Of a stretch of DNA of 64,000 bases, positions 16,945 through 44,200 are shown in pieces. How positions within the stretch are numbered: position 1 is the first letter of the stretch; each line of letters starts with the position of its first letter. The notes under the pieces were generated by a model, which was not told the origin of the DNA, searched no databases, and saw nothing but the letters and a program-made list of their open reading frames with translations. The translations under genes were made by a program, and so were the position numbers. This stretch comes from a virus, in IMG/VR virus record IMGVR_UViG_3300025131_008220, positions 19,920-83,919 of that record. The stretch is one strand, 5' to 3'.

Positions 16945-18019
16945 TACCTAAAAATTCTAAGATTTTATTAGTAGTCTTTTCGTAGGTAAACTCGTCCTGA
17001 AGTTTAAGTCCAGCCGAATTGAGTCTGTCGAACTCTACCTTTTCTATGGCTTTTTCGCAGCCATTAATAAAAGACTCTTCATCAAAATCAAAGATCCTTC
17101 CTTGGTTATACTCAGCTCCGGCTTTAAAGAAAACTCCATCTTCGGATGGTATTTTGCCAGAAGGTTCAATTAATGTAGAATTTTCTGGATTAGCCCATTC
17201 CTTATACCCAGTAGCATTCATTATGACTGAGTGTTTCCCTATCGCTACTGAATGAAACTCGGGTAGTCCCCAGCCCTCCGCTCCAGACATACCTACAACA
17301 ATATCTCCAGAATTAAGAAAGTCATTGTAGACTAAATTCTTATCCATGAAGTCTAGAAACTGTATATTGAAATAGTTTTTATCACCTAGAATCCTATTTA
17401 TTAAAGCTGGCATCTCTTTTTTTAGGAAAGGATTATGGATGGCGCATTGTAGGTGGTACCTTTTGTCGTTGCCAAACTTCTTAGCCCAAGCCTTGATTAT
17501 CTTGTTGTGTCTTTTTCTTTTTTCTAGCTTGCCACAAAGGTTGAAAACAATCCTGTTGTCATCGTAGTATTTTTTATCTAATCTTTTAAAATGATATTTA
17601 TCAAAGCCAAGAGGTATAAGGTCAGCTTTTAGTCCAAAGTTAGAAAAGACATCTACGGAGTGCTTGCTTGAGAAGATTAATCGATCAGCATTAGAGGCTA
17701 TGTTAACCTCTGATGGCGTAGGCGCATCTAATTCGTAAAAAGAAAAAAGAACTCTTTTAGAGGAAACGCTGTTTAGAGCTGAGGCATTAAGATGCCAGAG
17801 CATAAAGACGGGTTGTTCTTTCTTGTGAAATTTTGGCCCCTTAGCTATGCAGCTTTTAAGCCATTTAAGGAACTCTGGTTCAATGTTGAACGAAGAAACA
17901 TCCTCGTTTATAGGAAAAAGGCTCGGCTCAAGCCCCTTATTGTAAATCTCTCTGAGAAGACAATGGGAAACTTGGCCGAAACTTAAATTGTTAACCGGAA
18001 GCTGTAAGGCAAAATCCAT
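16937..18019 (-). CDS. GT-B glycosyltransferase (GT4-like)
   Basis: IPLGFD, GKLEKRK, EGWGLPEFHS donor-binding motif. Confidence 0.8.
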   Translation of the reverse strand: MDFALQLPVNNLSFGQVSHCLLREIYNKGLEPSLFPINEDVSSFNIEPEFLKWLKSCIAKGPKFHKKEQPVFMLWHLNASALNSVSSKRVLFSFYELDAPTPSEVNIASNADRLIFSSKHSVDVFSNFGLKADLIPLGFDKYHFKRLDKKYYDDNRIVFNLCGKLEKRKRHNKIIKAWAKKFGNDKRYHLQCAIHNPFLKKEMPALINRILGDKNYFNIQFLDFMDKNLVYNDFLNSGDIVVGMSGAEGWGLPEFHSVAIGKHSVIMNATGYKEWANPENSTLIEPSGKIPSEDGVFFKAGAEYNQGRIFDFDEESFINGCEKAIEKVEFDRLNSAGLKLQDEFTYEKTTNKILEFLGNA

Positions 18020-18330
18020 TACAGCAACGTGTCGCCATCTTCATCTGCAACCGCTGTCGCAGGAGCCTCCTTTGTTTGTGGGGTTGTTTCCGTTGACATA
18101 CCGCCTTGCTCTGAAGCCGGACGAGAAATATAAATCCTAAAATCAGGTTGATTCTCAGATTTCTTATCCTTGTTGTAGAAAGCTACAACTTGGACCTTCT
18201 TCTCTTCTCCGAACTCATTCTCCATCTTGAAATGACCAGAGAAATATTTCTTACCGCTACTCTGTGACGTCTTTGTCCAGAGGGCTCCGACTTCTCTCTT
18301 GTCCCAATCGTTATTTGTATTATCTGCCAT
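18019..18330 (-). CDS. DUF736-like protein, possible ssDNA-binding protein
   Basis: VGALWTKTS..GKKYFSG, NKDKKSENQPDFRIY; acidic tail DEDGDTLL. Confidence 0.6.
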   Translation of the reverse strand: MADNTNNDWDKREVGALWTKTSQSSGKKYFSGHFKMENEFGEEKKVQVVAFYNKDKKSENQPDFRIYISRPASEQGGMSTETTPQTKEAPATAVADEDGDTLL

Positions 18331-18340
18331 AACTTCCCTT

Positions 18341-18369
18341 AGTATAGATTAAACTTATCCAGCTGTCAA
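18341..18369 (-). promoter_or_regulatory. Sigma-70-type promoter, near-leaderless
   Basis: TTGACA-17 nt-TATACT; 10 nt to ATG 18330. Confidence 0.8.
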
Positions 18370-18378
18370 GCTTTTTGT

Positions 18379-18933
18379 TTAATGTATTTTTCTTTTTAAA
18401 ATTTCAGCACCTTTTCTATGCAGGTTTATGGCTGTCTGAGAACTGAAGCCTAAGAGATTTCCTATTTTGGCCCAAGTCATCTTGCCTCCCGAGAAGTATC
18501 TAAGAGAGTAGACTTTTTCAACTCTAGGGTCTTTCATTTTTCCTAGCTCGTTAAATATAAAAGACTTCATCTCTTTATTTGAGTAAGGATTTCCTTGCTC
18601 AGTTATTATGGTGTTCTGCCTGACTTTTTCGCTTAGTCTATTTATTTTAGCGGACTTACTTATTAAATGTAGGCATTTATACTTAACATTATTACTAAGC
18701 CAAGTACAAAAACTAGATCCTTTTTCTAAATTAAAACTTTTCGCCGACTCGTAAATAATTAAATCCTTATCTAATAGAATATCATTAGGGTCGGCCCCAG
18801 ATTTAGCCATAGACGACGAGTACTTAGAATACATAGACAAAAAGACAGGAGAATACCTAGATATCACCTTAAGTAGAGACAGGTCACAATCTTTTTCTTG
18901 TATCTTCTTTATTTCCAGATAGAAGTTATTCAT
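18379..18933 (-). CDS. Phage sigma-70-family sigma factor (regions 2 and 4 only)
   Basis: SFNLEKGSSFCTWL resembles region 2.3-2.4; LRYF..MTWAKIGNLLGFSSQTAINLHRKG is a region 4 HTH. Confidence 0.75.
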   Translation of the reverse strand: MNNFYLEIKKIQEKDCDLSLLKVISRYSPVFLSMYSKYSSSMAKSGADPNDILLDKDLIIYESAKSFNLEKGSSFCTWLSNNVKYKCLHLISKSAKINRLSEKVRQNTIITEQGNPYSNKEMKSFIFNELGKMKDPRVEKVYSLRYFSGGKMTWAKIGNLLGFSSQTAINLHRKGAEILKRKIH

Positions 18934-18949
18934 TTTTTTTTAAAATTAA

Positions 18950-19298
18950 TAAAAGAGGATTCCGCAAGCGGAATCGACGTAGCTTTTTTGCTGAGCACAG
19001 TTCACCCAACTTACAAAACACTTAAAACGACTACGAAAGGACGCTTTCGCTTCCACTTTAGTTCTATTCGCAGGGACTTTCTCCTTTTCGGCCCGCACAT
19101 ACGAGCCTAGCTAATGACTTTCGCAACCTATACCAAGTGTGATTAAAAATGGTAGAACTTTTTTAAATGATCACTTCCCTCATACGCCGCCTGCACCCGC
19201 TTGTAGCGTACCTTCCAAGGTTCGAGAAGCCCCTTCGGGGTTGTTGGTCTCTCAAGAGTTACCAGACTCGCTTTCGCTTAGAACCATTCTTCACACTT
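18950..19298 (-). ncRNA. Candidate structured RNA / long 5' leader of the sigma-factor gene
   Basis: Own consensus promoter; long-range helix 19298-19283 with 19153-19135; many GC-rich hairpins with GAAA loops; terminal GATTCCG-CTTG-CGGAATC hairpin followed by a pyrimidine/U run. Confidence 0.7.
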
Positions 19299-19303
19299 TC
19301 TCT

Positions 19304-19332
19304 ATTATAAATTTTACTTGACTTTCTGTCAA
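19304..19332 (-). promoter_or_regulatory. Consensus sigma-70-type promoter for the structured RNA / sigma gene
   Basis: TTGACA (19332-19327)-17 nt-TATAAT (19309-19304). Confidence 0.85.
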
Positions 19333-19346
19333 GTTTTTTTTAAAAT
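19318..19346 (+). promoter_or_regulatory. Sigma-70-type promoter, leaderless, overlapping the divergent promoter
   Basis: TTGACT-17 nt-TAAAAT; 6 nt to ATG 19353. Confidence 0.75.
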
Positions 19347-19352
19347 TTAAAA

Positions 19353-19805
19353 ATGGACAGACTCAGCTGGGTAGACTATGGCATAGAACTAGCAAAAACA
19401 GCGGCCCTAAGAAGCGAAGACCCATTCATTCAGGTTGGCTGCTGCCTTTTTAGGCCAGATAATAGCATCGCATCTCTAGGCTACAATGGGGCACCTCCCG
19501 GAGTTGACATAGACTGGTCAGATAGAGACGAAAGAAGGAAAAGAGTTATTCATGCTGAAACAAACGCCCTAAAGAATATAAAACCCCAAGAAGCAGACAG
19601 AATGTTTGTAACCTTAATGCCCTGTGGGGACTGCATTAAAAACGTAGCTTCTTATGGAATAAAGCAAATATTTTATATTAAAACATACGACCTTGATAAA
19701 ACAGCTATAGACCTAGCATCAGAATTTGGAATAAATTTAACACAACACAATAATGATCTCCGTATATATCAAAAAATTAGAAGAGTCGGCAGTGACGCCG
19801 ACTAG
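19353..19805 (+). CDS. dCMP deaminase
   Basis: RSEDP..QVGC, GYNG, HAE and PCGDC zinc motifs. Confidence 0.9.
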   Translation: MDRLSWVDYGIELAKTAALRSEDPFIQVGCCLFRPDNSIASLGYNGAPPGVDIDWSDRDERRKRVIHAETNALKNIKPQEADRMFVTLMPCGDCIKNVASYGIKQIFYIKTYDLDKTAIDLASEFGINLTQHNNDLRIYQKIRRVGSDAD

Positions 19806-20199
19806 AGCAACAGACCTAGACGCCGGGTACGACCTATATTCAATCAAAGACGGAGTAGTCCCAGCAGGAAGCAGGAAAGTAGTAGGGACAGGAATAGCTA
19901 TAGCCATTCCAAATAGCAGAAATGTTTTTGCTCCATCTTACTACGGAAGAATTGCCCCAAGATCAGGCCTCGCAGTAAAAAAAGGCATTGATGTGCTAGC
20001 GGGAGTTGTAGACGCAGGGTACAGAGGCGAAGTAGGGGTTGTCTTACAGAACCTTTCTGACGAAGACTTTATCTATAAAAAAGGAGACAGAGTAGCTCAG
20101 TTGATACTCGAACAGTGTAATACAATAGGCTGGGTCGAAGTAGAAGAGCTAGAAGATTCAACTAGATCCGATGGAGGCTATGGGAGTACAGGTAATTAA
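19753..20199 (+). CDS. dut: Trimeric dUTPase
   Basis: AGYDL, RIAPRSGLA, GVVDAGYRGE, GDRVAQL, RSDGGYGSTG (motifs I-V). Confidence 0.95.
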   Translation: MISVYIKKLEESAVTPTRATDLDAGYDLYSIKDGVVPAGSRKVVGTGIAIAIPNSRNVFAPSYYGRIAPRSGLAVKKGIDVLAGVVDAGYRGEVGVVLQNLSDEDFIYKKGDRVAQLILEQCNTIGWVEVEELEDSTRSDGGYGSTGN

Positions 20200-20533
20200 T
20201 CTAATAGCAGGCTCTCTGTCTGCTTGCGGGATTATGTTTTTATGGTTCGATACTAGTCTCGCCCTTGACTATCTAAAGCTACTTAGGTTAGAAAAAAAAT
20301 TTATAGAAGAATATGAAAAAGAGTTATTTGAAAATCCCGACATTAAGTTTTTGGAGTTTTCGTATTTTAAGAATCCCACCTTTTTCAATAAGCTCTTCTC
20401 CTGCCCTTACTGCCTTGGGTTTTGGGTGTCAGTATTTTGCACTATGATAGCAACACATAATATTTTTTTAATATTTGTTGGCTATATTTTTACCTTATCT
20501 TTTTATTTTATTTTTAAAAAATGGCAAAGTTAA
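20171..20533 (+). CDS. Small membrane protein (DUF1360-like)
   Basis: Hydrophobic segments and LFSCPYCLGFWVS motif. Confidence 0.55.
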   Translation: MEAMGVQVINLIAGSLSACGIMFLWFDTSLALDYLKLLRLEKKFIEEYEKELFENPDIKFLEFSYFKNPTFFNKLFSCPYCLGFWVSVFCTMIATHNIFLIFVGYIFTLSFYFIFKKWQS

Positions 20534-21020: not shown

Positions 21021-21604
21021 TGGAAGAAATAAACACACCCCAACAAGCCGCCATGTTTGACCATATTCTCTTCGAAGCAGACCTCCCTAGAAAAGGATTG
21101 CCTAACGAAATAAAAGAGATAGACATGTCTGACACAGAGTTTCAAACCACAGACCTGTCTAAAACCATGGACACTTGGTCTGTATCTAGCGCCGGAGAAC
21201 TTTTCTTCCACGAGAGCGAGCCCTTCTTTGTCAAAGACGAGAACCACTCAATGGGGGGATACTTTAAAGAAAAGCACAAAGGTATAAAAAGGGAAGAAAA
21301 GACAAAGTCAATCCACTTTTATAACGTTTTTGAAGGAAAGGAAAAAGACTATTGGATTTCTTATGACGCTTTATTTAGAAAAGGCAACTTAGTATCTGTT
21401 GATTTAAATGAAGTAGAAGAAGTAGACCAAGAAACAAGGAAAGAAGCAAGAGCAAAAGCAAGGGAAATAGCAGAGAGCTTTAACAAAAAGATGAACAGAA
21501 CCACCCACACCCTACTTAAGCCTATTAAGTTTTGCCTTGGTGTCTTTTTAATCTCCCTGCACTTTTGCGGAAGCAAGCTCTCGGAACTACACTCTAAGCT
21601 ATGA
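21020..21604 (+). CDS. Hypothetical phage protein
   Basis: 194-aa coupled ORF; MFD...EFQTTDL N-terminal pattern. Confidence 0.6.
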   Translation: MEEINTPQQAAMFDHILFEADLPRKGLPNEIKEIDMSDTEFQTTDLSKTMDTWSVSSAGELFFHESEPFFVKDENHSMGGYFKEKHKGIKREEKTKSIHFYNVFEGKEKDYWISYDALFRKGNLVSVDLNEVEEVDQETRKEARAKAREIAESFNKKMNRTTHTLLKPIKFCLGVFLISLHFCGSKLSELHSKL

Positions 21605-22227
21605 TAGGACTAAGCGGAATAGCAGGATCTGGTAAGGATTTATTTTGTAAACTCCTTTTAAAAGAGATAAAAGGAACAAGGATAGCTCTAGCAGACCCCT
21701 TAAAGGAAGAGACTAGAGGATTTATATTACAAAAATATGGAATAGATATTTTAAATTGCACCCTAGAACAAAAGAATAAAGTCAGAGATTTTTTGGTTTT
21801 CTATGGAGGGATAAAGAGATACGAATCTAAAGGAACGTACTGGACAGATAAAGCACAAAAGAAGATTGACGCATCTAAACACATCTCCGTTGTCACTGAT
21901 ATACGCTACGCCGAATATGAGAACGACGAGATACATTGGATTAAAGCTACGAACAAAGGGGTCTTAGTTCATATTAGAAAATATTGCGAAATAGAAACCT
22001 TTGGCCCTCATATGAAAAGAGTTTATTTTGATCCTCCTAACGAAGACGAAAGAAGAAGCGATCCTAAGCTCATGGAAAAAGCAGACTACTCCATTGAATG
22101 GCCCCACGTAGAGGACGCCACCCAAGAGGAAATTAAAGAAACGCTAGCCCCTTACGCAAAAGAATTTGCCGAATGGTACAATAAAAAGAAAAATTATGAA
22201 GCAAGCAAAGCAAAACGCAGCAAGTAA
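21601..22227 (+). CDS. Phage deoxynucleoside monophosphate kinase
   Basis: IGLSGIAGSGKD P-loop, LADPLKE, VTDIRY..E..E. Confidence 0.8.
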   Translation: MIGLSGIAGSGKDLFCKLLLKEIKGTRIALADPLKEETRGFILQKYGIDILNCTLEQKNKVRDFLVFYGGIKRYESKGTYWTDKAQKKIDASKHISVVTDIRYAEYENDEIHWIKATNKGVLVHIRKYCEIETFGPHMKRVYFDPPNEDERRSDPKLMEKADYSIEWPHVEDATQEEIKETLAPYAKEFAEWYNKKKNYEASKAKRSK

Positions 22228-27625: not shown

Positions 27626-28336
27626 ATGTCTATAGATCAAAAAACGTTTCAAAGAAACGAAGCAGGGCTTTTAGTTAAACCCCCAATTGACTACGTATTC
27701 AACGAAGACGGCTCCGTTGATTGGAGAAAAATGGTCAGGACAAGCTTTTTAGTAGCCAATAAACAAAGGACAAACCAAACCGATGTATCTCAACTGGAAG
27801 ACAAAGACCTACTTATTCTGCTGGGAGGCATTAAAGAGCTGGCTCAAATTAGAGGTTTTACCCAAGTGAGCTACAACGTGGTAGCCGCAAGCCAAGAGTA
27901 TTTTGCGACTAGCTGCACTATTGAATGGTTACCCAACTACGAAACTAATAACCTCTCTTCGACGTTCTCTGCTTTAGCAGACGCACACCAAGATAATACG
28001 TATAGCTTTGCCTGCAACTTCCTAGCAGCAACGGCGGAAAACAGAGCTTTTGTTCGGTGTGTAAGGAACTTTCTCAGGATTAACGTCGTTGGCCAAGAAG
28101 AGATGGGAGGAGGCCAGAAACAATCAACCTTCACTCAAAAATCTTCTGCCGCAAAGACAGACTCCAATCCCGCCACCCTATTAGAAAAAGTTATGGACAC
28201 AAAGGGGGTATCTTTTGATATGGTCAAATCTCGTTTGCTGGAAGAAGGCTTTAAGAAAGCAGAGTCGTATGATTCAATTAAAGACATACCTAAGACTAAA
28301 ACTTTTGAACTCATAGCTAGACTAAAAAAGATTTAA
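27626..28336 (+). CDS. Rad52/Sak-like single-strand annealing protein (putative)
   Basis: GIKELAQ, three-strand core, AATAENRAFVRCVRNFLRI...EEM helix resembling phage Sak AETRAxxRAL...EEM. Confidence 0.5.
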   Translation: MSIDQKTFQRNEAGLLVKPPIDYVFNEDGSVDWRKMVRTSFLVANKQRTNQTDVSQLEDKDLLILLGGIKELAQIRGFTQVSYNVVAASQEYFATSCTIEWLPNYETNNLSSTFSALADAHQDNTYSFACNFLAATAENRAFVRCVRNFLRINVVGQEEMGGGQKQSTFTQKSSAAKTDSNPATLLEKVMDTKGVSFDMVKSRLLEEGFKKAESYDSIKDIPKTKTFELIARLKKI

Positions 28337-28386
28337 AAAAGACTTGACAAGTGAATAAGTTTTTGTTAGAATAAGTAAAGCAAGAC
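28326..28386 (+). repeat. 61-bp dispersed repeat, copy 2 (promoter TTGACA-17-TAGAAT at 28344-28372)
   Basis: 58/61 identical to the reverse complement of 15179..15239. Confidence 0.9.
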
Positions 28387-28585
28387 GAATTTCCTCTCTC
28401 GACGGAGAGAGGTCGGTGTGACGGAACAATCCCTCCCAAAGGGGTAACGTAGCGACTGCGAGAAGTACAGAGACCAATCGGTTGAGAAAAATCGCGGGTG
28501 AGTCCGAAGTAAGTAGATCTGAAACATTTGTTTTCTGGGTACTGAAAAGGTGCGGGTACACAAATACTCCCGCCACCATTTATTT
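28378..28585 (+). ncRNA. Candidate structured RNA / leader
   Basis: Follows promoter; CCTCTCTC-GACG-GAGAGAGG hairpin (28393-28412), further short stems, terminal GGTGCGGG...CCCGCCACC stem then A/T run; GC-richer than flanks. Confidence 0.55.
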
Positions 28586-28853: not shown

Positions 28854-29213
28854 CTACCACTTACCAATAGGGCAAGACTCCTCAGCTAAATAAACCTTCA
28901 GTGGAACAACACAACCGCACTCAGCGCATCTTTGGTTTTCTTTAATAAACCAAGCGCACCCGTGGCATATAGCGGTCCTTTTCTCTATTAGGGACATTTC
29001 CGCTTTTATCTTCTTTCCGGCCACTAAAGCCTTTGCAGTTTTAGAGAGACTCTTAGCTAAGTTAGCCGCCATCTCCTTCTTGCTGGGGAGCTTCTTTTTG
29101 TCCAGCTTTATAAAATCTTTTTTTAAAGAACCCCTTTTTCTTCCAGAACTATTCGTTTGAGTAGACCCAATTGGTTCGATATAAGACCCTCCTGAAAAAT
29201 TTTTTAAACTCAT
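28854..29213 (-). CDS. Cys-rich small phage protein (DUF6171-like)
   Basis: ICHGC...CAECGC...K....ESCPIGKW. Confidence 0.65.
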   Translation of the reverse strand: MSLKNFSGGSYIEPIGSTQTNSSGRKRGSLKKDFIKLDKKKLPSKKEMAANLAKSLSKTAKALVAGKKIKAEMSLIEKRTAICHGCAWFIKENQRCAECGCVVPLKVYLAEESCPIGKW

Positions 29214-32200
29214 TTTTTTAAATCAAAAACCAGAGGATCGTTGCTAACTTTTAATGTTTTTATTTGTCCCGGGTAGCAGTAATGAATACAAGGCCCCATG
29301 TATGCCGTCTTTCCGTACCCCTTTATGCCTTTTCTAACGGCATACAGATACTCGTTAGCGCCGTAAACAGCCATAGCCAAGTCAAACTCAGGCTCAACCT
29401 TAAAAGTTCCTTTCGCGGGAACTTGTACAATAGAAGATGACTCCGCATAAGTCTCTTGAGGCCCTATGACATCATCTCCCTCACTTAAATCAAACAAGTC
29501 TTCATAACTATGGGTAACATTGTAGGTGCTTGAAGCTCCACCTTCGCAAAGGCTATGCCTTCCATTTCTTTTATAAACTTCCCCTATTTTAGTCTCTTCA
29601 CATGTAGACCTACCCTCTACAAGGGAGCACCTTAGCTTAGATTCCTCTGGTCTATATTTTTCCTTTAAGCCAACAGGCAGACTCCTAGTGAAATCTGGAG
29701 AAGCAACAACTTCATACTCAGTCCAAACCTTTACTGTTCTTAAAAACGCGGATAAGAAAGGCTTATCTCTGGTCTGACAACCAAAAACTATTTGATTGGA
29801 GTACCCAGCCCTTATATATTCAGAGCCCCTTATATCAACCAACACGCCACCTTCAACCGGATCAAATTGGGTGCCATCAACTGTAGAATTTCCTAAAGAG
29901 GAGTCTTTAACAGGAGGGCGTAGAGGCCAAAGCTCGCTGCTTACATCAAATACCTCACTTTTGTAAACAAGCTCTCCCCCGTAGGCGTAAGCTCTTCTGT
30001 TAATTGGGGTAGGCAAAGGGAGACCTTCTGTTTTAATAGGGTGATCGCCATACTCCATGGGAGGATTACAGTAGACACCCAATTTCTTAGGTATATTTAC
30101 ATTATTTGGCAATCCAATACTCTTAGGAGTTCTAGGGTCATCCTCATCTTTTTTGAATTTCTTGGCCTCTGGAGTATCTCTTAACTCTTCGTCTACATCT
30201 TCCCATATCGGGCTTCCGAGATCAGCGTCGTAGTCTGTTATATTCTTAAGATCCCCTGAATTACCCCCATCACTTTCGAACGCAGAAAAATGAGCCACTT
30301 TAACTTCATTGGAGTCGGGATCAAGATAAACTATATAATTTATTCTAGACTTGTTCTCATAAGTTAAATAATCATATTCATCATCCCCCATACCCCAGCT
30401 GGAATCGGCATCCCCTGCAGAATCGAGATTTGGAAAGGTCAGTCCAGCCATATCTGGATTATTTATATATCTATATTCAACCTGACTGAACCTCCTTACC
30501 TTTGCATATAAAGGAGCTTCTACTCGTATTTTATGCATAAAGTTAACAGCTCTAGCGTAAGTATTGAAAACCTCTGCAGTAATAGCAGCTCCCGGCAATA
30601 TACCAAAAGACTGAGGCAAGGATGGGTTATCCTCCCTAGAGAAAGAACTTATCCAAGGAGTCGTCTTACTAGCTATTTCGTTGTTTACGACCCTATACTC
30701 TACTATAGATGAGTTATTCGCTAAAGCCCAAGCTTCTCCGGGATCAACGTCCGGATAAACCTCATACTGAATGAACGGCTTATCACTTCCGGGCTGATAC
30801 TTAACCTCTACAGACCTGTTGCTAACAGAAGAAGAGTCCGTCTGGTCCTCCTGAAACAAGCCATCTACATACTCATTCTCTGTCCCCTTTATTTCCGAAA
30901 TCTCGTCGGGCATAGATCTTCCATAATTCTGAGAACCCTTTATTTGTTCTATAGAGGAAGTAGCAAAGTTTTTTATTTTTATAATCCTGTCGGCCTGAGC
31001 CTGTATGTCTCCCCATTCTTTATCATCTTCCGAGGAACCCTTCATAAAATCAACAGAGCCCCTGTTGACACTTTCACTCAACTCCTCGTACTCTGTGTAA
31101 TCAGCTATTTTCTCTGTGTCCTCATAAGTCAACCCGAACTCTTCCTGCTCTTCCTTAGGTAGCGAAGACTCGTTTCCTGTTATAGTTGCTTTATACAGCT
31201 GCAAACCGGGCACATCGGTAATTGATATCCGGTCAAGACCCCTTTCTTTATTAGGGGAGCCAGCAAGATTAGCTATCTTTAAGTTATGTATAATGATAGG
31301 AGTCACATCAGATCTATACTGCTCTACTTTAACTGTCTTAAGTCCATCAACATCGGCATAGCCAGTACCAGCATTGATTACTTCTATAAATTTTAATTTT
31401 CCGTTTTCTATTATGGAGCTAGCCTGAGCTTTCCTAAAGTGAGACGGCTTTTTATCTGGTTCTGCTATTGAGATAGTCGGAGGAGTCCTATAATTATCTC
31501 CGGAATCACTTATCATAACCTTAGATATGCCCCCTCGATTAATAGGGTCTTTATAGTTAGCCCTCATATTATGTTCTAAGTTAAACATATACAGCCTCGA
31601 GCAAGGAAGGGTTAAGTCTACGTTCCTATTATGTTTTTTAAAATCAAAGGTTCCGAACTTAACCAAACCACTTTCCGGAAAAGATACCGACTTCTTGATG
31701 TCAGGATTTTCAACCATACTCAAAGAGTGCTGGTATAGATCTATTTCTTCGTTAAGTACACCGTCTCCAGACAAGTCTGAGTCATATATAATAGACCTCC
31801 ACTTGAAAGGTAGCCTCATTGGAGATATTTGTTTTTCTTTAGACTGCCATAACTCTTGGCTATCTTTGTCTTTATAGCTTATGTCTACGCCAGTTATGAC
31901 TATCCTATATTTCTTACTGGCGTCTATGCCCTCCCTTTCTATGGAAAATTTGTTCCCTTTATGGCTTAAACCCTCCTCTACACTGCTCCAACTTACCCCA
32001 TCAGAGCTATTTTCTAAGTCGTAGCGAATGCGAACTGGTTTAGTTCTCTGCTTCTCTTCTAATCCCCCAAAGCCATCTGCAAAGCCATCCCAAAAATCAG
32101 TAATATGAAAATCTAAACTACTGCGCCCCGGAGCGACATTAACATAAGGATATATATATTTACATACCGCAGGCATACCCATATCGAAAAACAAATCTGC

Positions 32201-35200
32201 AGTAAAATCTTTACTAGAAGATATAGGAGCGACATGTTCATCAAGCCTTGAAAGCCCTGAAGCAGTAAGTTGTTCACCCTTCTGGGAGTTAGATAGAAGT
32301 GAGGCGTGACCTTCTGTGTCGTAAGACTCATAGACTTGTTTAAATTGGTCTCTGAACCCCTTATTTAACATAGGTATTTGATAATCAAAGTAAGGGGAGC
32401 CAACTAAATCTTCCCCATTGTCCCCATCTGTCTCGGCAGGATAATCAATGATACAATCCGCTTCCTCAACTATACATAGATTTTCAAAAACTTTATTTCT
32501 CAGAAAGTTTCCGGCTGCCCCCACTGATTTAGATGTTCGGGCCTCTGGCCCAAGCGTTTCTGGTGTATCTTCGGCAACATCATAATTTAAAACAACCTTC
32601 AGATCCTCATTTGTATTAAAGATCACGCCAGAAGTACTAAGGTTAAGCAGAGGATCATCTTCATTGAATATAACGCTACCATTTAAAGTAATAGATTTAA
32701 TATCACTACTCTTCTTATATATGTATCTGTATCCTTGTTTAGTATTTAACTTTATATTCAATGTTACAGTTTTATCAGAATCAGAATTTGTATAGCTAAC
32801 TCTTTCTATTTGAGTATTAGATCTATATAATAAATTTTTCCAAGAAGAGAATATATTAAAACTTTCACTTGTCCAATGAGACGCCGGAATTGCTGTATAA
32901 TCAGGATCCAACCCTGTTACTGTTCCGTAGCCGAGGCCGCCGTAAGTTTCTCCATGCCAGTGCTTAGCTGCGGTAGAGAGTTCTAAATTAGCCCTTATCT
33001 TATTCCCATCTAAGACATTATTAGTTGCCCAAGAGTCTACCCTCTCGCTGGATATTTCACTAAGCGGTGGCTCTAGATAGAAAGTCCTAGACCCTATCAC
33101 AATTGGGGAATTTAATGAGGTTACAGGGCTGTCAGAATCAGGTTGTCCGTAAACGGAGTCATCACCAAGGCAAGATTTTACAGATCTATAAGTCCCATCG
33201 TCTTCTGTTTCTAGATCAAAATAATTTACCACCTTAAATACTTGACCGGGTAATTCATTATTTGGATCAGCAGATGACACAGTATCCTCTATATCCGCAT
33301 CCACCTTATTAAAGGAATCAAGATTTGAGTCTGAGCTAAATATTTTTAATAAAGTTATAGTATTTTTTGTTTCGTTACCGCTAGTGGCCTGACTAGTAAC
33401 CCTAGCAAAATAAGGCTTACCGCCAACTATGGAGCCTTTGCTATTTTTAAATACAATTGCGTCTCCATTTGAAATTGCTCCCCTAATTACAAGCTGGTTA
33501 CTACTTAAATAGGCGTCGCCTTTATCAGAACTAGTAGCACCTATGGTCCTCCAATTTCTATTTTCACCAGAGAACCTCAAAACCCCTCCCGGCCTATATA
33601 TATCGTGGTAAGATATAGAGCTAACCTCTGTGTCTAAATAATATTTTAACCCAGCAGTCTCGCTCTCATTAGTTAGATACGAACCTATCTGATAATCTTT
33701 CTTTAGATTTTCAAATACAAGCTTCCTCTCCGTAAGCTTTTTAAGCCTAAGCCTGATAGCCTTGTAAGCCTGCTTCCCCTTGGATGTGTTATAAGAAAGG
33801 CCAAGTTGCTCCCTCGTGTCACCACCGTTGATGCCGAAAGGAATAAAAGAATAGCCTTGATGATTTTTTAAACTTTTTCTTCTGTCTCTTTCTGCTATAG
33901 CGAGAGTCTTTGTTATACCTGAGTCATGAGTACCCCCACCTTCTCTCATCGCATATTCCTGACCCTCATTAGTGTTAAAATCAAGATTTAAACTGCTTAT
34001 AGTTCCATCTGCTACAAAAGGCAAAGAGTCTCTGGCTCCTAAAGAGATAGACAACACGACTTTACCTGTATTATTAGTAAAAGACAGGCTGCTTTTTATT
34101 TCGTATTCGTATCCGGGGCTATCTATCTTGTTGTCTTCAAACTTTACCCTAAGCACGTAGTCTTTGTCAGTAGAATTATCTTTGTTTGTCCACGTGACGT
34201 CAGAAAAGCTTTCAGAAAAATCCAAGTCTGGATCTTTTGGTATTTTAAATTCAAAATAATCCTTCTTAAAAGCGCCTTCTATATCTTTTAATTTTTTGCC
34301 TTGTATTAGTTCATAAGAGGCTCCATTAGCTACTTTGTTACTAATCCTGCCATTTAAGAAATTCTCTTTTTGATAATCTTCCGACACCTTGGTCCAAGTA
34401 GGATCAACGTAATCATCATCTTCAGTCTTGTTAGCTATCTCCTCGTTTAGAGCTTCAGTCTCTTTTTCTACTATATCTTTTATAGCCAAATCCGACTCAT
34501 CAACTCCTTCTGCTTTAAATAAAGAAGCTTTCACTACTGCGAAATAATTATAATGTATTTGATAGTTTTCCTTACCTGCGACTCCTATAAATTTTTCTCC
34601 GGGCCAGTAGCTTTTGCCATTATACCAAATTACCGGAAAGAATTCCTTAGACACTACATCGGTGTACTTATGTGAGCCGTAAGCAGTGCCGCCCGGTGCA
34701 CCCCTTACGGCTGTTGGAGCAAAGTCGTACTTTACAGGAACAGTCTCATCCCCAATCTGATAATATCCATCGAAATCTTCTAGTATGTAATACTTGCCAC
34801 TCTCTATACCAGAGACGGTAACTAACCCTGTTCTTTCGTTAAACTCCTTGGAGTAACAGATTCTTTCGTGTCCAGTACTAATGGAGTAGCCTATTGTTCT
34901 TGCTGGCATATCCCAAGAGATCTTAAGGCCATTTAATATATAATCAGACGAGTCCTTATCGTAGTAAATCTCCTTGCGTTCGATGCCATAGTCTAATAGA
35001 CTGGAAGCAGAGTCCTTCTTATCTCCATATAAGACCACGCCAAATTTATAGGGATTGTCGAAATTGCTAATAGACTCGTAGCCGGAAAGCCCATCACTCT
35101 CTATAAACGGCGGGGAAGGCCAGTGAAGATTAGTCCTAAATATGTTGGAAAACTTATATCTAGTCCCAACATAGTTAACATTAAAAGACTCTTTCTTTTT

Positions 35201-38200
35201 AATAATCCATTCTGCGTTTTGTTCTTCTTCATTAAAATAATTTGGATCTTTTTGTAAATGAGGAATATGAACATCTTTCAAGCTAATAAACCAATCTCTT
35301 CTATTAAACCTTGGACATAGATTATAGTCAAGCTCCTCTGAATTGGTAAACGCAGTTTTTTCTGATGAGTATATTTTATTGATTTTTCCGCCAGCTGTAA
35401 TATTGACGGCTTTACTGGAGGCATTTATTATCTTTAGCCCATCAACAGTTCCCGTATACTCTATGTCTGCTGGCTGAGTTATTACGGTTACTTTGTTCTT
35501 AGTGCTTATAAAATGTTTTGGCCTAAGCATGTCTATCTGCCGTCCCTCTAGCTCATCTTCAGTTAGATCATCAACCATCAGAGCTCTCATAGATTTATTA
35601 GCAGGCAAAGACCCCACTCCATCGGATTCAAAATCCTCTATTCTTAATTTATTTTCAAATATCCGGCACTGACTATTAGATATGTTACCTATCAGAGTGT
35701 TATCTTTTTTAGCCGAGTATATGATATCAAAGGGATCTTTAAATATTACTATTTTGCCGTCATAAAATGGTTTATTTAAATAAAAGTTTTTATAAAGAGT
35801 CGTCTCTTCAAAGGCTGCATCTCCTCCTTTCGCTACCTCAGTATAGCTTTGTAGTTCTGTTACGGTTGGATCACCTGTTCCTTCCTGAGCGCACGAGATC
35901 ATGATCTTGCATTTAGTGGAGCCAGTTAATAGGTCAACTTCGTAATCGTTTTCATCCCCTCCCATGTCTTTGAAATTATTATCATTTGAATCTAATTTTC
36001 TTAAATTGACAGGGCTCCTGTCTTTATTGTACAGACAAAATTCAGTTCTCTGATCGTGCTTAAAGATATAATCATAATATCTATTAGATAAAACAACCTT
36101 GTCTTTAACAGACTCATCTAATATAAACTCAAACATGTTGCAAACAGGAATCTTTATTTCCATTTTGCTTGATAAAGATGGATCAAATTTTACTGGTTTT
36201 GAATGAGATATATCTATCCTATCATCATACTTATTATATAGAGCATAATTAGTACTCCATTTTTTGAGCCTAGATAGATCCGGAGTAAAACCACCTCTTT
36301 GAAGCTTTGAGTCAACGCTTGACCAAATGATAAGCGGCACAAAAGTAGTAGTAAAATAAGCATCGTCCGTTACGTTGAATGCTTTTACGTTTTCAGCGTC
36401 AAAAAGAACGACTTTATCCTTGTGAATTGAAGCTGATATCTCCACAGCTCCATCTTTTAAAGTGTGCAGCTTCACGTTTCTGTTGTCGCTATCTATAATA
36501 TAATTTTCTGACGAGTCTACTTTAAAATCACAGTAAGCATAAGCAGGTATAGCATAGGTAGATGCCCCTTCTATTGTCTTTGAGGCATTATAGTTTTTAA
36601 CATGGAAAGGGGACTTGCTGTTGTTTATTATTTTTATAGAACCAACATCCTTATGTATAGCTAAAGCCCCTGAAACTGAATTTTGCTTCGAAGTTATGAA
36701 AACCCCAGAGTCAGAGGAGAAAATAGCATTACTTAAAGTAACCACCTCTACACCATCATCGTCACCAGTCACATCACTAAAGGCACCATCGCTATACTTG
36801 ATCTTTTTAGCTGCCCCCGCAGCAATAGTAGCATTAGCAAACACAGAGGCCCCCTCAGGACAAGAGAGAACGGATGAATTTCTAGAAGCATTCACTACCG
36901 TAAAATAGATATTATTAAGTTCGAGCATATCCTGCCTAGAAGGTAAAGAGATGTTTTGTTGATCAGCAAAGACATGTTTAAACGTTGACCCTTCTGCGAC
37001 GCCGATATCCAAAGACACAGACTTCTCTTTTAAAAGACGGACATTAGAGCCTATCTTTCCGTTCTCGTCTTTTGTATCATTTAGCGTTATCTGATACGGG
37101 TTATACTCATTAGCTAGCGGCTGCATCTTATTTTCGTCATCAAAGAAAAACCCAAAAGGCCCGGTAAAGCTACCTAATTCGGAAGTCATAACATCTTGTA
37201 TGCCAAGACTCAAGACTTTATTTTTATTTAAGTAGTTAGCAGTATCAGTCTGCGATATATATGGCGAGCCAATGCCAAAGTCGGCATCCCCATCCAAACT
37301 TAACAAATAGTAACCCTCTTCCTCCGTCTCCTCAGGAAAGTACGATAAAATTTTAGCAGCTATTGAGTTTTTCTTATCGTCACTCAGATTGTTAGAGCCA
37401 GCATCTACAGCAACGACAGAAGATATTTTGATGTTTTCATAAACAGTATTTATTATATTTATGTTGCTAACGTTTTCTGCACCAAACCCAACAATCTTAT
37501 AATATTCACTATCAGAAGTCAAATCTATCTCTTCGTTTTTAGATAGCGTATAGGCTTCTTCAACAAGAGACTTTAGGTTTATCTCTTCTGCATCTGACGA
37601 GGTTATTTTATCATAATAAACATATAAAGATAAAGAGAGCTGCTTTCCGAACACATGATAGTCTATGGAGCTATCTAAAGACGTAGAAGAGTGGTTTATG
37701 TTAAAGACTGACTGTTCGTCGTCTACAGCAGATATATGCCTAAAGTAATAAGGGTTGTCGTCTGGGTAAACACTAAAGTTATCAAGCTCAACAGAATACG
37801 CTACCATGGGGTGAAGCTTGCCGTCCCTATAAAGTTCCGACTCTTCGTTAAGGTCACTAACAATTCCCGGATTATATGAATTATCGTCTCCTTCCACGGA
37901 GATTAACAAAGAAGACGTAGATATATTTGCTATTTGAAAATTAAAATATTCTGAGGCGCTGATTGGCCTAAAGATTTGATTTTCTCCAGTCCCATTTAAA
38001 TAATGCCCTGATCCATCCGCCTTATATAAGTAAGGACGCAAGAAATTAGGCTGGCTATCTACAACTATCTTCTTTCCGTTGTGAGTATCGTAGTCAAGAA
38101 TTATATCTCCCTCTCGGGATATGCTGTACCTATCTCTCTTACTTTTTGTTTTTTCGTAATTACGATATAACTTTCCGTCGCTAACTATAACAGAATCAGA

Positions 38201-41200
38201 ACTTAAATAAAATCTATAGCCAGATACAGAATGGTACAAGCCGTCGTCTTCGTCTTCTTTCAAACTACCGTAAAGGGAGTAGGCAGTATTAGTCGTTGAT
38301 AAGTCAGCATTAGATATAACTAACATAGCGTTAGCGTTAACCACCACAGAAGCCGTTCTAGAGAAGTTCCTTGCCGTTATAGGCATGTTGGTCATGTTAA
38401 CAACAGCAACCTGCTTTAAATTAGTATAAGCGTCAGGCAATATTATTTCTCTATCTTCATTATATTCTTCGTCTTCGTTTGGAGTATAAAATACAAAGTT
38501 TAACGCTTGCTTAGTTCCCCCTGCAGGGGTATACGTGAATTGACTTTGAGCGTTATCTATTCCTAGATTTGCTCTATCTGGAATATGTATTTCGTTTTTA
38601 GGGTAGTATATAACATCTCTATTTGCTACGCTTTGGTCTTGCAAAGTGAAAGCGCCATTACCGTCATGTTTGTAGGCTCTATTTTTAAGTAAAGTATCAG
38701 TGCTGCTATCTTGTGTGTTTTTAATGGTAACTGAATCTAAACCGCCATTAATAAAATAATCATTATCAAAGTCATTGTCTGTTAAAGCAGCTTGAGCAGT
38801 AAACACTCCACTTGTTATAATTTGATTTTTACTAGCTGCCGCAGCTGTTGCTTTATTTATATCCAAACTATCAACTGAGCCATCTAAACCAATCAAAGTA
38901 TGGACCCCAGAGAAAGCTAGACCTCCTTGAGTATAAGAGCCGTCAGAGGCACTGAATAGCTCCACAGACTCTTTGTTGCCTAAAGAGCTGACAATAGTAG
39001 AGTCGTCAGAGTAAGCTTTTATATTTTGAGAACCGCCTAAGTTTATTATTGAAACCTTACCATAGTCTAAGGCATCTGTATAAAAGGTCTCTGAGAAGAA
39101 TGTATAGTCAGAAACACTGGCATAAGTAACTGGGACAGATAGAGCCTTATCTGAGTATAAAAGGAACTCGTTTTCATTTACTACTTTGACAAACAAAGTT
39201 TGAGTCATTAAGTCTGCTTCGTCTACGTCTGCATCCAGAGCCGAGCCAGCAGCAAAAGTAAAAGGTATAGAATTTGATGTAGTCTTTGCAGTAGCGGCGC
39301 TGAGACCATTAGAGTATAAGTCGTATATATTTCCAGCCCCTACAGGAGTTCCCCCCGACTCCTTGTTAGAACCCACTCCAATCCTTATAAACATTTTCCC
39401 AGCTTCTAATGGCCCATTCGTATCCCACTGAAAAGTGTAATAATACTCATTAAAAGTACCAATTAAAGGCTCCGGTATAGTAAAATAGTCCTCGACCAAG
39501 TACCTATAGCTTCCATCGGTCCCATTGTCTACATATCGAAAATATGTATCTGATTGAGTGTCATAAACCAATAAAGTATCCCCTTCTGCTATGCTGTGAG
39601 AGCCTATAGTTCCATTAAAAGTATCCTTCGCTGAGTCCCAATCAGAAGTTTCAAAATAATAATCAACCAAAGTCAACCTATCGCACGGGAAGACCATTTT
39701 ATGATTTGTAACAAGACCATGATTACTTAAATTAAACTTATTGCTCCCAGTAAGAGAAACCTTAGAGAGCTGGAATGCCTCACCTTCTGATGCTGGCGCA
39801 TATTTATTAACCTTACCCTCGGAAAAGAAAGATCGCAAGGCCACGTTACTTAAAGAGCCGTCAAGAACAAGAAAGTCCTCATCACTCAAAGCAGGGGAAG
39901 AGAAGCTTTCAATAGGGGTGGTTCGAAAGTTATCGTAGTTAGTAGCAATCTCTACGTCTTCGTCTTCAAAATAATCATAAGTTGACGCGCTAAAACCCTC
40001 CAAGGAGTCCATGGTAACGCTAGTTATATCACTGTTATCACTTATAGCCGCAGCTGGGTACAATACGTTCGACAGGCTTTCGGCCGCGTTTACAAACGTT
40101 AAAGCAAAGCCCCTGTTGTAGTCAAAATCAGTTAGGTTTGTCTTCAAAGTAGGTAGCTCGACAGCAAATTCTTCATTTCTACTTATCAAAACTCTTTCTT
40201 TTGCATCACTTGGTTGATTAAACTTATATTTATTAGAATTTTTATTCTGTGGGTCGGCCCCAATAAACTCTACATAGAACTTGTTTTCTCCCCCTGATCC
40301 TTGCCCTATGATATGCGAGCTTTTACCAACCCTCACCAAGTCTTTATTAGATAAATTATCTACTACATACCTATGGAAACCCGAGTCCTCTTGGTCATTA
40401 AATTTATATACATTGTCTTCTGACTCTAGGTCATACGCCAAGGTAGTGCTAGGATGAGCAGAGATAAAGAAAAACTCAAAGTTAGTTGGGTAAGTGTCTT
40501 TTTTAAATTTAAGTTGTATTTTTTCTGAAGAGCCAGAGTAGGAAAAGATTTTTCCGTGTGACCGAGAGTCTATTATAATCTGAGAACCAGTTATAGCACT
40601 TATGTTAGTAAAGGACCACCCATAGGATTTCTTTTCCACCCTTACTCCAATAACACCCGGGGGAGCGCTATACTCTAGATGGCCGTCAATAAAAATTCTC
40701 ATTGTAGGGGTCCTTTCGTCCCTTAGAAAATCAAAGCTTATATCGTTAACCTGAGATCTTACGACGCTGAAATTAAAACCCTCGGTAGTGCTATCAGAAT
40801 TTACTCTAACATCCACATCCTCATTATGAATAAATACCTCTTTATTGTCTGATGACTTTACATTTAATTGATTATATCTGATCACCTCTATGTTGCTAGT
40901 TGACCAGTTTCGTATAGTTTTTCCCCCGGACTCAGACTTAGAACAAGTAAATTTTCTAGTAGTTTGCCTAGGTATATAGTCAACTGATTTTGAATCTATT
41001 TTATAGCCCGACTCAGATACAACCTTTATCTCGTCATCTGTAGCGTTTAAAAACGATACATGCTCGCCTCCTGCAAAGCCGCTAGGCAATACAAGAGTGG
41101 AGTTAGTATCTATAACGCCTGTTATGTCGACATCGTTTTCGGTTAATACTATCTTGTCATGATCAATAACTATAACACCAGAATCAATATGATTGAGCCT

Positions 41201-44200
41201 CTGGGCAGACGCATTGTAAGACACTCCAGACAAAGACCCTAGGCCATCACGGCCAGCTATACCATCAACCAATGAGCAATCCCCAGTAGAAATATTTACC
41301 AAAGTGCACGCGCTATCTATATTTGAGTTTGATACAGAAACCTTGCTTACGTCCTCCACTAAGACCAGACTTTCATCAATGTCTTGTCCTACTTTGGCAT
41401 CTGGCAGAACTGTAATAACGCCAGAGACTTCGTCCCCAGATGAATCAAAAGAGCCATCAGAATCAACTCTAATGGTTCTTGCTTTTTCTGTACTAGAAGT
41501 AAGAGCCGGTGAAGAGTAAGCCGCGTCTGGGCTATCAAACAACTTAACAGTTGAGGAACCAATATTTACAATATCAAAATGATAATTGTTCCCAATAAAT
41601 ATGCCGCTAGCATTTGTACCAGAAACTAAAAAGGTCTTACCTATATCATCAGCAGTAACAGTAAATTCGCCAGTCATCACAGGGGAATTTAAGAAGTCGT
41701 AAGCTGGCTTATAGGAAACACCACTGACCCCTGTCTCAATAGACGAGTCTGATAGGCCCGTAGTAAAGGACGAGCAAGTAAAATTGATAAGAGACTCGCT
41801 AGGAGCAGTATCGTTCGCTGTATATATATCAAAATTTTCTAGCTCGTCTAAATGGCTACCTGTTATAGAAGGGTCATAGAGGACCTTCGTCTGCCTCGCA
41901 TCTAAGATTACATTTTCTCCAGTCTTAATTGAACCATGAGATTTCTCGACTCTATTTATTGAAAGACCACTAGGCTTAGGCCCTATAACACTTTTTACAG
42001 TCTCTAAAGAACTAACGCTGCCTCCGTATACCCTCAGGCCGGTCATACCCGCAACCTCATACGGTTTTCTATCTTCTATGTCAGTATAAGTAACCGTAGA
42101 AGTTTTGTCTAGAGCCATAGTTACATTCTCTACTTTAAGCGTGTCACTAACATCGCTGCTAAATAATATACTCTCGTTAGGGTCTTTATATACTACATAT
42201 GTGGTATCAGAGTCTAAATGAACAGCTACTTGGTTAGCTTGGTCATAAACAGAGTAGTGTTGAGAATCTAAAGGCGAATCAATAGCGCCCTCCATCTGCC
42301 CTTTGTCGCCAGCGGCTTTCTGCGTTAAGTCTAGAAGGGTACCAGAAGTAGGTATAGTCACCTCCATGGGCAATAAATTAACCTTTTTTAGCACCTGTGT
42401 ATTAAGAGAGCCATCGGAGATAGATATATTCTGCTTTTTCTTTATTCTAATCTCTATATCCTCAGGCTTATACTTATCCGTTATGTCGGTTTTTATTATT
42501 AAAGTCGGCAGCAGCGTAACATTATCTATGTTGTCGAAAGAGTTTGGTCTTAACCCTTCTAAATCATTATAAAACATTGGATAGCCTACATGGCTTTCTG
42601 TAGAATCTACATCTGTCCAATTAGAACCTTCATCAATTGAATATTGGAGTTGATAGTCCCAACCAGATTGAGATCCCCTTGATTCTTTATGCCCAACATC
42701 GCCGACAACAACAGCGTGTTTTGTATAAAGCCTATAAACATATCTAGTTATCCTGAGCCTAGAGGCGCTAGAGTAGGACGCGCTGTCACTAGATACAAGC
42801 GGAATTGTAGACGTATCTTCTCCGCCCTTTTTAGCGAAGCGCATAGACCTCATACTTTTACCTCTATCTAGGAACTCATACAGATAAGGAGCCCTTCCTT
42901 TATTAAAGTTATCTGTACTACGAGCCTCATCCCTAACGTTGAAAAAATAATTATCCAATACGATTCCGTCAAAAGCTGAGATGTTACCGCTAGAGTCTCT
43001 GAATATAGGCCTACCTTCATAGTTTTTATTTATATGGGGGTTATTAGGCGCTCTATAGGCGTAGCCCTGCAGATAATTAACTAAAGCCCTCGTCCTTGAA
43101 TCTGTCTCAAGTTTTCCATATTCGTTGGTGCCCTCAGCCAGAGCATCTTGCAGCCATTCATATGCATGAAAAGTGGTCTCATCAGACATATCAGCTATAT
43201 GATCCAGATAGTTGTCAGGAGGACCAACGTTATCAAACTGATTCCTGTTAATGATCCAGTCATTTTTAGCAGACTTTGCTCTATTGTATTTTAATTTTAA
43301 AACTCTGTACCTTATCTTTCCGCTATCTACTTTAAAGTCAGTCTTAGAGTCGTCTGTTGTCTTCCCCTTATGCAAAGATTTTCCAACATAGAACCTTACT
43401 TGATAAAGCTCAGCATTCAGCCCTTTTCCTATTGTTAAGGCCTTAGTAGAATCAAAAGAGTAGTCGTCGTAACCGCATTCTATATATTTGAATTTCTCAT
43501 TAGTTTTAGCATCTGTTTTTAAAACTTGAGCTTCTCCATCTACATATAAACACAATCTATATTCATCCTTACCGGACTTAACTTTAGCTAACGCTATATG
43601 CTTCCAGCTAGATGTAGCTCCAATATCATGATCCCCTATGACAACTCCAAACGAGTCCCCCTTAAGCCTGACTGTCAACTTAGCAGAGCTGGGAGTTGAG
43701 GCGTCTATGGATAATTTTATTCCATTTTCTCTCTCAAATATAGTCCCAGTCTCAGATGCCGCCTTTATCCAAAACTCTAAAGAAAACTCTCCGTTCTGTA
43801 TATTAAAAGATCTATGAGAAGGGATAGATAAGTACTGATCATCTTCACCGGGAAAACTAAAAGCTTTTATATCATCATCACCATCCCCATCCCAATCTTC
43901 ATCTATTAAAGCAATGGCTCCTGCTGATTCCGGATTCTTATTTATGGAGTGCTCTGTTTTTGATGCATCATAAATTCTGTCTGTAGTAGTGTTATCTATG
44001 CCACCTGTGCTTTTAAGTACTAAGCTGTCTGGAGATTCATTAGACAATCCTATTCCTTCGTAGTCGTCTACTATAGCTCCCGGAGCCCATTCCACAACCC
44101 TAATTTCAGTGTCCTCTGTTTTATTTGTTATTAAGGTGTCGTGAGTCAACCCAACAGTAATGTTGCCAGTATCATCTCCATGGGCGTCTACAGCATAGGA

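Follow-up and report, generated by a model that had tools for sequence, protein, structure and literature searches.

The minus strand of a viral DNA stretch of 64,000 nucleotides (nt), hereafter the window (positions 19,920 to 83,919 of the 83.9-kb IMG/VR virus record IMGVR_UViG_3300025131_008220, whose completeness is estimated at 54%), almost certainly encodes a structured RNA that belongs to no Rfam family and lies directly upstream of a phage sigma-factor gene. It occupies the gap (18934-19352 of the window) between two divergent genes, a dCMP deaminase on the plus strand and the sigma gene on the minus strand. Its conserved core of ~315 nt consists of two multi-helix domains tied by a pseudoknot, with a promoter motif at its start and a terminator-like hairpin behind it. 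By sequence comparison it is best regarded as a new family of RNAs whose function is not known and which only one clade of uncultured marine phages carries. A preliminary description of this DNA had suspected here an unrecognised large non-coding RNA, a suspicion now borne out by covariation, purifying selection, a G-U bias of the minus strand and the lack of a matching Rfam family.

Comparative evidence for a structured RNA

After removal of duplicates, 30 distinct homologues were available from viral and metagenome contigs, and a structure-blind MAFFT alignment of 25 full or nearly full cores was built (A3; 353 columns, mean column identity of 77%). RNAalifold predicted 55 pairs on this alignment, 20 of them compensatory; with the pseudoknot and one hairpin added by hand to the predicted structure, 61 pairs in 11 helices were counted. 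Standard pairs fill 97.9% of the 1518 cells, against 92.6 +/- 0.3% in shuffled alignments, and 21 of the 61 pairs change on both sides, against 11.2 +/- 1.7, with none of 500 shuffles reaching the observed value on any of five measures. When the 3' partners were slid by 1-3 columns as a control, 38.7-48.5% of cells were paired and 3-9 pairs were compensatory. Kinship among the sequences inflates permutation and shuffle tests of this kind; the slid controls retain that kinship and yet fail. The preliminary description had held that an absence of covariation among homologues would speak against the RNA, and these counts point the other way.

The helix that closes the first domain (P1) was misaligned by MAFFT because of indels, and was tested free of any alignment instead. 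In 24/24 homologues an interrupted duplex, at -11.0 to -24.0 kcal/mol, joins the first ~25 nt to the strand after AGUUCUA; cognate strands average -15.75 kcal/mol versus -9.16 kcal/mol for non-cognate ones, and none of 10000 partner permutations attains the cognate mean. The long-range helix already proposed between 19298-19283 and 19153-19135 is in this way retained.

At five pair columns of A3 G-U outnumbers every other pair, and it is frequent at others; since such pairs would be A-C mismatches on the plus strand, the RNA is placed on the minus strand only. This observation bears on the least credible of the explanations considered, namely that no RNA is made and that the region is a DNA-level element (an origin or operator array) or a small protein-coding gene. 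A palindrome in the promoter region (19316-19334) may well act at the DNA level, and ORFs (open reading frames) of 30-70 amino acids (aa) are present in the RNA region of the window; nonetheless, the compensatory changes keep pairing rather than sequence, the length of the longest sense ORF is inconstant (22-66 aa across 24 homologues), and indels are not multiples of three. The earlier judgement that no credible ORF is present is thereby supported.

Selection was compared over 171 pairs drawn from the 19 sequences with a complete sigma gene. The RNA core has a mean pairwise identity of 0.793, sigma codon positions 1+2 one of 0.769 and codon position 3 one of 0.489, rising to 0.577 at position 3 of identical amino acids, and the core exceeds codon position 3 in 170/171 pairs. 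To judge from these identities, purifying selection on the RNA exceeds that at synonymous sites of the neighbouring sigma gene.

Fold of the RNA

The conserved core (18987-19300, minus strand) is delimited by the match of the covariance model R1 (318 positions, 49 pairs), which scores 340.5 bits here and finds this single match in the 83.9-kb record. R1 also recovers 27/27 of the homologue sources supplied, at 179-359 bits. All features of the fold given below lie on the minus strand.

Domain 1 (19135-19298) is closed by P1, in which AAGTGTGA/AGAATGGT (19298-19283) face ACCATTTT/TCACACTT (19153-19135). Inside it, P5 (GCTTCTC/GGGAAGT, 19230-19224 with 19179-19173) has compensatory changes in 2/7 pairs and the P6 hairpin (19221-19210) in 5/5, while P2 (GC-GAAA-GC) and P7 (TACGCT/GGCGTA, 19209-19205 with 19188-19184) show one-sided changes only. 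The inner part of the P7 loop is invariant, as are P4 (CCC/GGG) and the stretch GCGGGTGCAGGCGGCG. Domain 2 (19029-19128) is closed by the 11-bp helix P8 (GGTTGCGAAAG/CTTTCGTAGTC, 19128-19118 with 19039-19029), with 98.5% of cells paired and 6/11 pairs compensatory, and encloses P9 (GGCTCG/CGGGCC, 19107-19102 with 19095-19090; 6/6 pairs compensatory), P10 (19084-19082 with 19076-19074; 1/3) and P11 (GGAAGC-GAAA-GCGTCC, 19053-19040; one-sided changes only). The best-supported helices are P6, P9, P8 and P5, and three of these (P5, P6 and P8) had been left unlisted in the preliminary description.

All coordinates and stems quoted in that description are present in the sequence, and most of the stems find support among homologues. 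TACGCT/GGCGTA, GGAAGC-GAAA-GCGTCC and GC-GAAA-GC persist through one-sided compatible changes, and GGCTCGT/GCGGGCC survives, trimmed by a pair, as the covarying P9. CCCC-GAA-GGGG is present in the window but invariant among homologues, hence devoid of covariation information, and TGGT/ACCA is lost in homologues, where TGTT and TGTC variants occur.

The two domains are connected by AGUUCUA (19153-19159), adjacent to P1, and UAGAACU (19060-19066), inside domain 2. Standard pairs fill 99.4% of the cells of this helix, with one compensatory change (U-A to C-G, in homologue L120) and 8 changes from U-A to U-G, and on this comparative evidence it is read as a pseudoknot linking both domains. Two alternative partners had been suggested for TAGAACT, of which AGTTCTA is the one kept; GGTTCTA is not conserved (it reads GGTTTAA in homologue L003).

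Downstream of P8, the invariant AGUUGGGUG is followed by a local hairpin pairing UGGG with CUCA (18991-19011), in which 97% of cells are paired and C/U changes occur on one side only. Of the longer GTTGGGT/GCTCAGC stem once drawn here, this TGGG/YYYA portion is what homologues retain, the rest not being kept. RNAalifold also predicts a second long-range pairing, between CCAAC (19243-19247) and GUUGG (19010-19006), identical in 25/25 sequences; with both strands invariant, it stays a candidate. It competes with the local hairpin UGGG/YYYA, which hints at alternative states. A further pairing, GUCUG/CAGGC, had a single supporting U-to-C change (in L104) and is not claimed.

Promoter, hairpin and gene order

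The host-type sigma70 promoter of the RNA (19304-19332, minus strand) consists of a -35 box TTGACA (19332-19327), a 17-nt spacer and a -10 box TATAAT (19309-19304), that is, 12/12 consensus matches, exactly as previously described. TTGACA-17-TATA[A/C]T is found upstream of the RNA in 26/26 homologues with complete upstream sequence (23 TATAAT, 3 TATACT), and in these P1 starts 6-8 nt past the -10 box. As the promoter is of the E. coli consensus type, transcription and termination could be assayed on synthetic DNA whatever the host. The palindrome ACTTGAC-N5-GTCAAGT mentioned above overlaps the -35 boxes of two back-to-back promoters, that of the RNA and the plus-strand one of the deaminase, and is kept in homologues. 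The deaminase promoter (TTGACT-17-TAAAAT, 19318-19346) ends 6 nt upstream of the ATG at 19353, so the deaminase mRNA would be nearly leaderless; the gene itself (19353-19805, plus strand) was recognised by Pfam (E 9e-17).

Behind the core, a consensus scan finds an intrinsic-terminator-like hairpin on the minus strand (18946-18975, stem-loop 18975-18958), GAUUCCG-CUUG-CGGAAUC, then CUCUUUUAUUAA. It has a 7-bp stem with 4 GC pairs, a 4-nt loop and the tail CTCTTTTATT, and its end lies 24 nt upstream of the sigma ATG, as the preliminary description had it. The stem covaries among homologues (GAUUCC/GGAAUC, CACUCC/GGAGUG, CACUGC/GCAGUG, GAUUUC/GAAAUC), and a GC-rich hairpin precedes sigma in all sequences except L141 (by script, with L104 and L120 inspected by eye). 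In the 19 sequences in which the script picked the hairpin, its end stands 16-27 nt from the sigma ATG. Of the 12 nt past the hairpin, 5-8 are U in 18/19 homologues; in the clade of L059 the hairpin is present with no U-run. Considering that L141 has no hairpin and the L059 clade no U-run, the RNA must there be the 5' untranslated region (UTR) of the sigma mRNA. In the window 3 nt separate the stem from the U-run (CUC UUUU), a spacing suggestive of a leaky terminator.

The gene downstream of the RNA (18379-18933, minus strand) encodes 184 aa and is, from profile matches, best described as a divergent ECF-type sigma factor of the sigma-70 family. The protein matches TIGR02937 (sigma70-ECF) with E 5.7e-07 over profile positions 16-164 of 165 (149/165), at 29.3 bits under the curated cut-off of 42.9, and Pfam Sigma70_r2 with E 0.008, likewise under cut-off; a PHROG annotated 'transcriptional regulator' matches its C-terminus, and several of its homologues carry PF04542 and the source-given name 'sigma-70 family'. 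No PDB sequence matched it at E up to 1.

Gene order is identical wherever visible: divergent deaminase, RNA, sigma, a 103-aa ORF and a glycosyltransferase. The deaminase lies 53-54 nt from the RNA start in 22 loci, in divergent orientation, and sigma follows the RNA directly on the same strand in 24/27 loci, two others being cut by the contig end. The third exception, L063 (1-1196), is a low-coverage metagenome contig of 1196 nt that holds promoter and domain 1 only (R1, 179 bits), followed by unrelated DNA; its remainder carries, on the other strand, an ORF for a branched-chain amino-acid ABC permease (PF02653, E 1e-20). Either the assembly is chimeric here or the genomic context differs. 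A Pfam scan of ten flanking ORFs in the window returned the deaminase, a dUTPase, the glycosyltransferase and a DUF736-like protein, and neither Cas12f nor TnpB. Directly past the sigma stop codon stands a near-consensus promoter, TTGACA-17-TATACT (18341-18369, minus strand), so that the genes downstream of sigma are independent of read-through from the RNA promoter. Farther along the window, the minus strand carries a single ORF of 5917 aa (29210-46963), then same-strand ORFs of 1400, 1106, 706, 621, 604 and 604 aa.

Distribution among phages

Searching IMG/VR with the sigma protein gave six loci whose upstream regions align to the window, and DNA motif scans added two further contigs; DNA patterns and protein searches together all yield the same eight contigs, the window's own record left out. 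L053 and L054 proved to be chance matches, not homologues. A scan of metagenome contigs with a two-block motif returned 96 stretches, 31 of them true homologues (blastn E up to 1e-5). As these were all ascertained via two motifs of domain 1, the motifs are bound in part to look invariant. Among cultured phages there was no DNA match for 18300-19900 and no tblastn match for the sigma protein, and in bacterial and archaeal species genomes the two-block pattern occurred in 35 stretches, 0/35 of them homologous (blastn E up to 0.01); neither a prophage copy nor a pointer to the host emerged.

A profile search of the sigma family reveals a gap between close relatives (56-97% identity) and a large second group (32-45% identity), of which 80 of 206 IMG/VR loci were examined. 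These distant sigma genes sit directly behind coding genes. ORF-free gaps of 320-1048 nt appeared upstream of some of them and turned out to be artefacts of the ORF filter: the four that were read (L229, L234, L194 and L258) encode a P-loop dNMP-kinase-like protein, and most others align to them over their full length. The window has a counterpart of this gene at 21601-22227 on the opposite strand, suggesting an inversion in the RNA-bearing clade. On present sequence comparisons, the RNA is a clade-specific addition and no general requirement of this sigma family.

Phages with this RNA are present in many marine metagenomes, with 18 runs holding at least half of the sampled words. Two RNA-library runs, found with words from 18300-19500, contain small shares of the stretch. 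Their exact pieces within 17500-20500, as 151-nt Logan contigs of depth 2-3.7, are only 18980-19130 and 19253-19403 (X19) and 19006-19156 (X20); none falls on the sigma ORF, and start, end, strand and level are not readable from them. One piece extends over the promoter as far as the deaminase gene; a transcript from 19298 could not do this, so DNA carry-over may be involved. These pieces are a weak and ambiguous hint and are not used as evidence.

What the RNA may do

The explanation tentatively favoured is that of a cis-acting leader or attenuator that sets read-through into sigma. Host RNA polymerase would start at the consensus early promoter, at about 19298-19297, and the first ~315 nt would fold into two domains locked by the pseudoknot and possibly by the second long-range pairing. 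Since no separate sigma promoter is seen, most transcripts would be expected to end at the hairpin, giving a discrete RNA of ~345 nt, with sigma made only from read-through. Acting in cis, the folded leader would bind a factor, or the very polymerase that transcribes it, and in this way control the polymerase flow into sigma and the start time of the phage's own transcription programme. The sequences show the fold, its conservation, the promoter and hairpin motifs and the fixed gene order; termination at the hairpin, the reliance of sigma on read-through and any regulation in cis are inferred from these. Gating of sigma, and with it of the early-to-late switch, fits the predicted layout of promoter, RNA, hairpin and ATG, and the cis explanation is also supported by a manA-like candidate riboswitch that has the same layout in the same phage. 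The preliminary description had spoken of a riboswitch- or attenuator-like leader; the layout part of that proposal stands, whereas the switching part lacks a conserved terminator/antiterminator. The classical riboswitch platform being absent, a mechanism that tolerates variable spacing is likelier, either binding of a protein or binding of the polymerase as in the put RNA of phage HK022.

Several observations weigh against a leader of this kind. (i) No conserved terminator/antiterminator alternative joins core and hairpin. (ii) The spacer between core and hairpin is unconserved, measuring 11 nt in the window and 11-52 nt over the same 19 sequences, whereas the hairpin stands at a fixed distance from the ATG. 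(iii) P1, P8 and the pseudoknot make the core a closed unit, and an autonomous RNA would be expected to look like this. (iv) All homologues belong to one syntenic phage clade, and the constant place before sigma may be inheritance, not function. (v) In the 80 distant sigma loci, nhmmer gave nothing at E up to 10 and the best cmsearch score of R1 was 9.5 bits (E 0.55), 0/80 being credible; with such relatives sitting behind coding genes, sigma does not need the RNA. (vi) Transcription, its ends and its termination are predicted from motifs.

Folding energy also belongs on this side. The minimum free energy (MFE) of the 367-nt transcript is -97.3 kcal/mol versus -97.24 +/- 5.32 for shuffled sequences (z = -0.01; 49/100 fold as well), formally the outcome that the preliminary description had named as adverse, and the plus strand, at -78.5 kcal/mol (z = -0.42), does no better than shuffles either. 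The lower MFE of the minus strand does agree with the strand assignment. The unconstrained MFE structure holds just 28/61 of the supported pairs, and for the 314-nt core the enforced, covariation-supported nested structure has -77.3 kcal/mol versus a free MFE of -85.1 kcal/mol. With single-sequence energy no better than that of shuffles, the case for the RNA is carried by the comparative evidence only.

Much of the above would agree with a stand-alone RNA gene, with its own promoter and terminator, whose product acts in trans as a scaffold, a decoy or an ornate RNA like GOLLD or ROOL and whose position, at the strand switch upstream of sigma, was inherited by the clade with the gene order, and this explanation is held to be nearly as likely as the cis leader. 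The fold is self-contained, with P1 at the predicted transcript start and two closed domains joined by the pseudoknot; long runs of unpaired nucleotides are invariant, and conservation goes beyond that of the neighbouring protein; a canonical hairpin and U-run follow the core after a spacer of variable length. Complete synteny deprives the linkage to sigma of independent weight, and R1 has no match in the 80 distant sigma loci examined. On the contrary, with no sigma promoter seen behind the hairpin, sigma would still need read-through; L141 does without the hairpin and the L059 clade without the U-run; the hairpin distance is fixed to the sigma ATG and not to the core; and no target or partner is known for such an RNA. 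A classical riboswitch, in which a metabolite or ion would choose between the terminator hairpin and an antiterminator, is an unlikely reading of the same data. The 5' UTR position, the highly conserved pseudoknotted core and the manA-like candidate in the same genome agree with it, and the invariant GUUGG can pair either with CCAAC or in the local hairpin. In L029 and L058, moreover, a segment of the spacer (AGCGGA..) duplicates the terminator's 3' arm and is able to base-pair with the 5' one, much as an antiterminator would, but this segment is confined to that sub-clade and the short spacer of the window has none. Besides, a core of 315 nt in two closed domains has a size not known from aptamers, the Rfam riboswitch families give no match at E up to 10, and a sigma gene is no obvious metabolic target. 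Less probable still is a ribozyme, for instance one self-cleaving or processing the sigma transcript: size, pseudoknots and near-invariant junction nucleotides resemble those of large ribozymes, but no Rfam ribozyme family matches, no conserved cleavage-site context was identified, exon-like flanks are missing, and ARAGORN finds neither tRNA nor tmRNA in the window.

RNAs of more than 300 nt with a complex fold and near-invariant junctions are rare, and most of those solved have proved to be ribozymes, sophisticated sensors or cores of ribonucleoproteins. The present one heads the transcription unit of a phage sigma factor, the control point of the gene-expression programme of the phage. Should it gate sigma, it would time events by means of RNA in a way that is not described for phages; should its action be in trans, structural work would gain a suitable new object, an orphan large RNA.

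Comparison with known RNAs

Rfam 15 gave no match at gathering threshold across the whole window, and none at E up to 1 in seven homologue loci (14424 bases), leaving the novelty claimed in the preliminary description in place. At E up to 10 in 18850-19400, the best match was RAGATH-22, on the other strand and with 18.9 bits versus a gathering threshold of 120.3. A literature search found no description of an RNA ahead of a phage sigma gene. A published screen (PMC10690425) that included the intergenic regions of IMG/VR catalogues 10,006 candidate structured RNAs of viruses, among them RNAs no more than 25 nt upstream of a gene; the word 'sigma' occurs 0 times in its main text, and the present RNA may be among its candidates.

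GOLLD and ROOL are likewise large, multi-domain, pseudoknotted and phage-borne, with their own promoter and of unknown function. The present RNA is much smaller at 315 nt, has no tRNA gene in its 64-kb window and always stands directly before the sigma gene; the GOLLD model reaches 9.1 bits versus a gathering threshold of 150, in a partial match outside the core.

Besides GOLLD and ROOL, the closest known kinds are manA and wcaG, candidate riboswitches in 5' UTRs of marine phages that share the order promoter, RNA, hairpin and ATG. Weinberg et al. 2010 (PMC2864571) describe the manA motif in 5' UTRs of marine phage genes. Neither covariance model matches the sigma-leader RNA at E up to 10; the latter is ~1.6 times longer, and the gene downstream is sigma and not one of sugar or nucleotide metabolism. 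The same phage carries a manA-like RNA (RF01745) at 28395-28583 on the plus strand (42.1 bits versus a gathering threshold of 55.2, E about 1e-9). A TTGACA promoter of its own (cassette 28326-28386) precedes it, and it ends with a GCGGG/CCCGC hairpin and a U-run shortly ahead of the ATG at 28592; two related phage records carry it with 82-83% identity. As R1 matches once in the record, and not at this element, the RNA at 28395-28583 is no paralogue or copy of the one before sigma.

In dCas12f-sigmaE systems, too, an ECF-type sigma gene has a genetic link with a non-coding RNA; the guide RNAs of these systems, according to Hoffmann et al. (PMC13472631), measure 85-105 nt, lie downstream of dcas12f and need dCas12f. 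Here, on the contrary, no Cas12f-like ORF is found among ten neighbours, and the next downstream ORFs are the 103-aa one and the glycosyltransferase. With 6S RNA there is a thematic tie to sigma and polymerase usage; nonetheless, the present fold has two branched domains and a pseudoknot rather than a rod with a central bubble, and no Rfam 6S family matches.

As regards transcriptional riboswitches in general, the conserved and mutually exclusive terminator and antiterminator overlapping the aptamer that would mark them was not found, while the order of promoter, core, hairpin and sigma that would mark a put-like system occurs in the window and in the homologues. The put RNA of phage HK022, one of several RNAs that bring about processive antitermination in cis, is made of two stem-loops of about 70 nt. 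The likeness lies in a folded RNA placed in cis between a strong early promoter and a terminator, with variable terminator spacing tolerated; put is far shorter, and the likeness is one of layout. A new class of large pseudoknotted phage RNA acting directly on the transcription machinery is a speculative prospect, which we consider doubtful. In one form, the RNA would act in cis to make its own polymerase terminator-resistant before sigma, as a much larger and unrelated analogue of put; in the other, it would be a partner or antagonist of the phage sigma. Were either form true, the passage of the phage from host-directed to phage-directed transcription would have an RNA as its timer in place of a protein.

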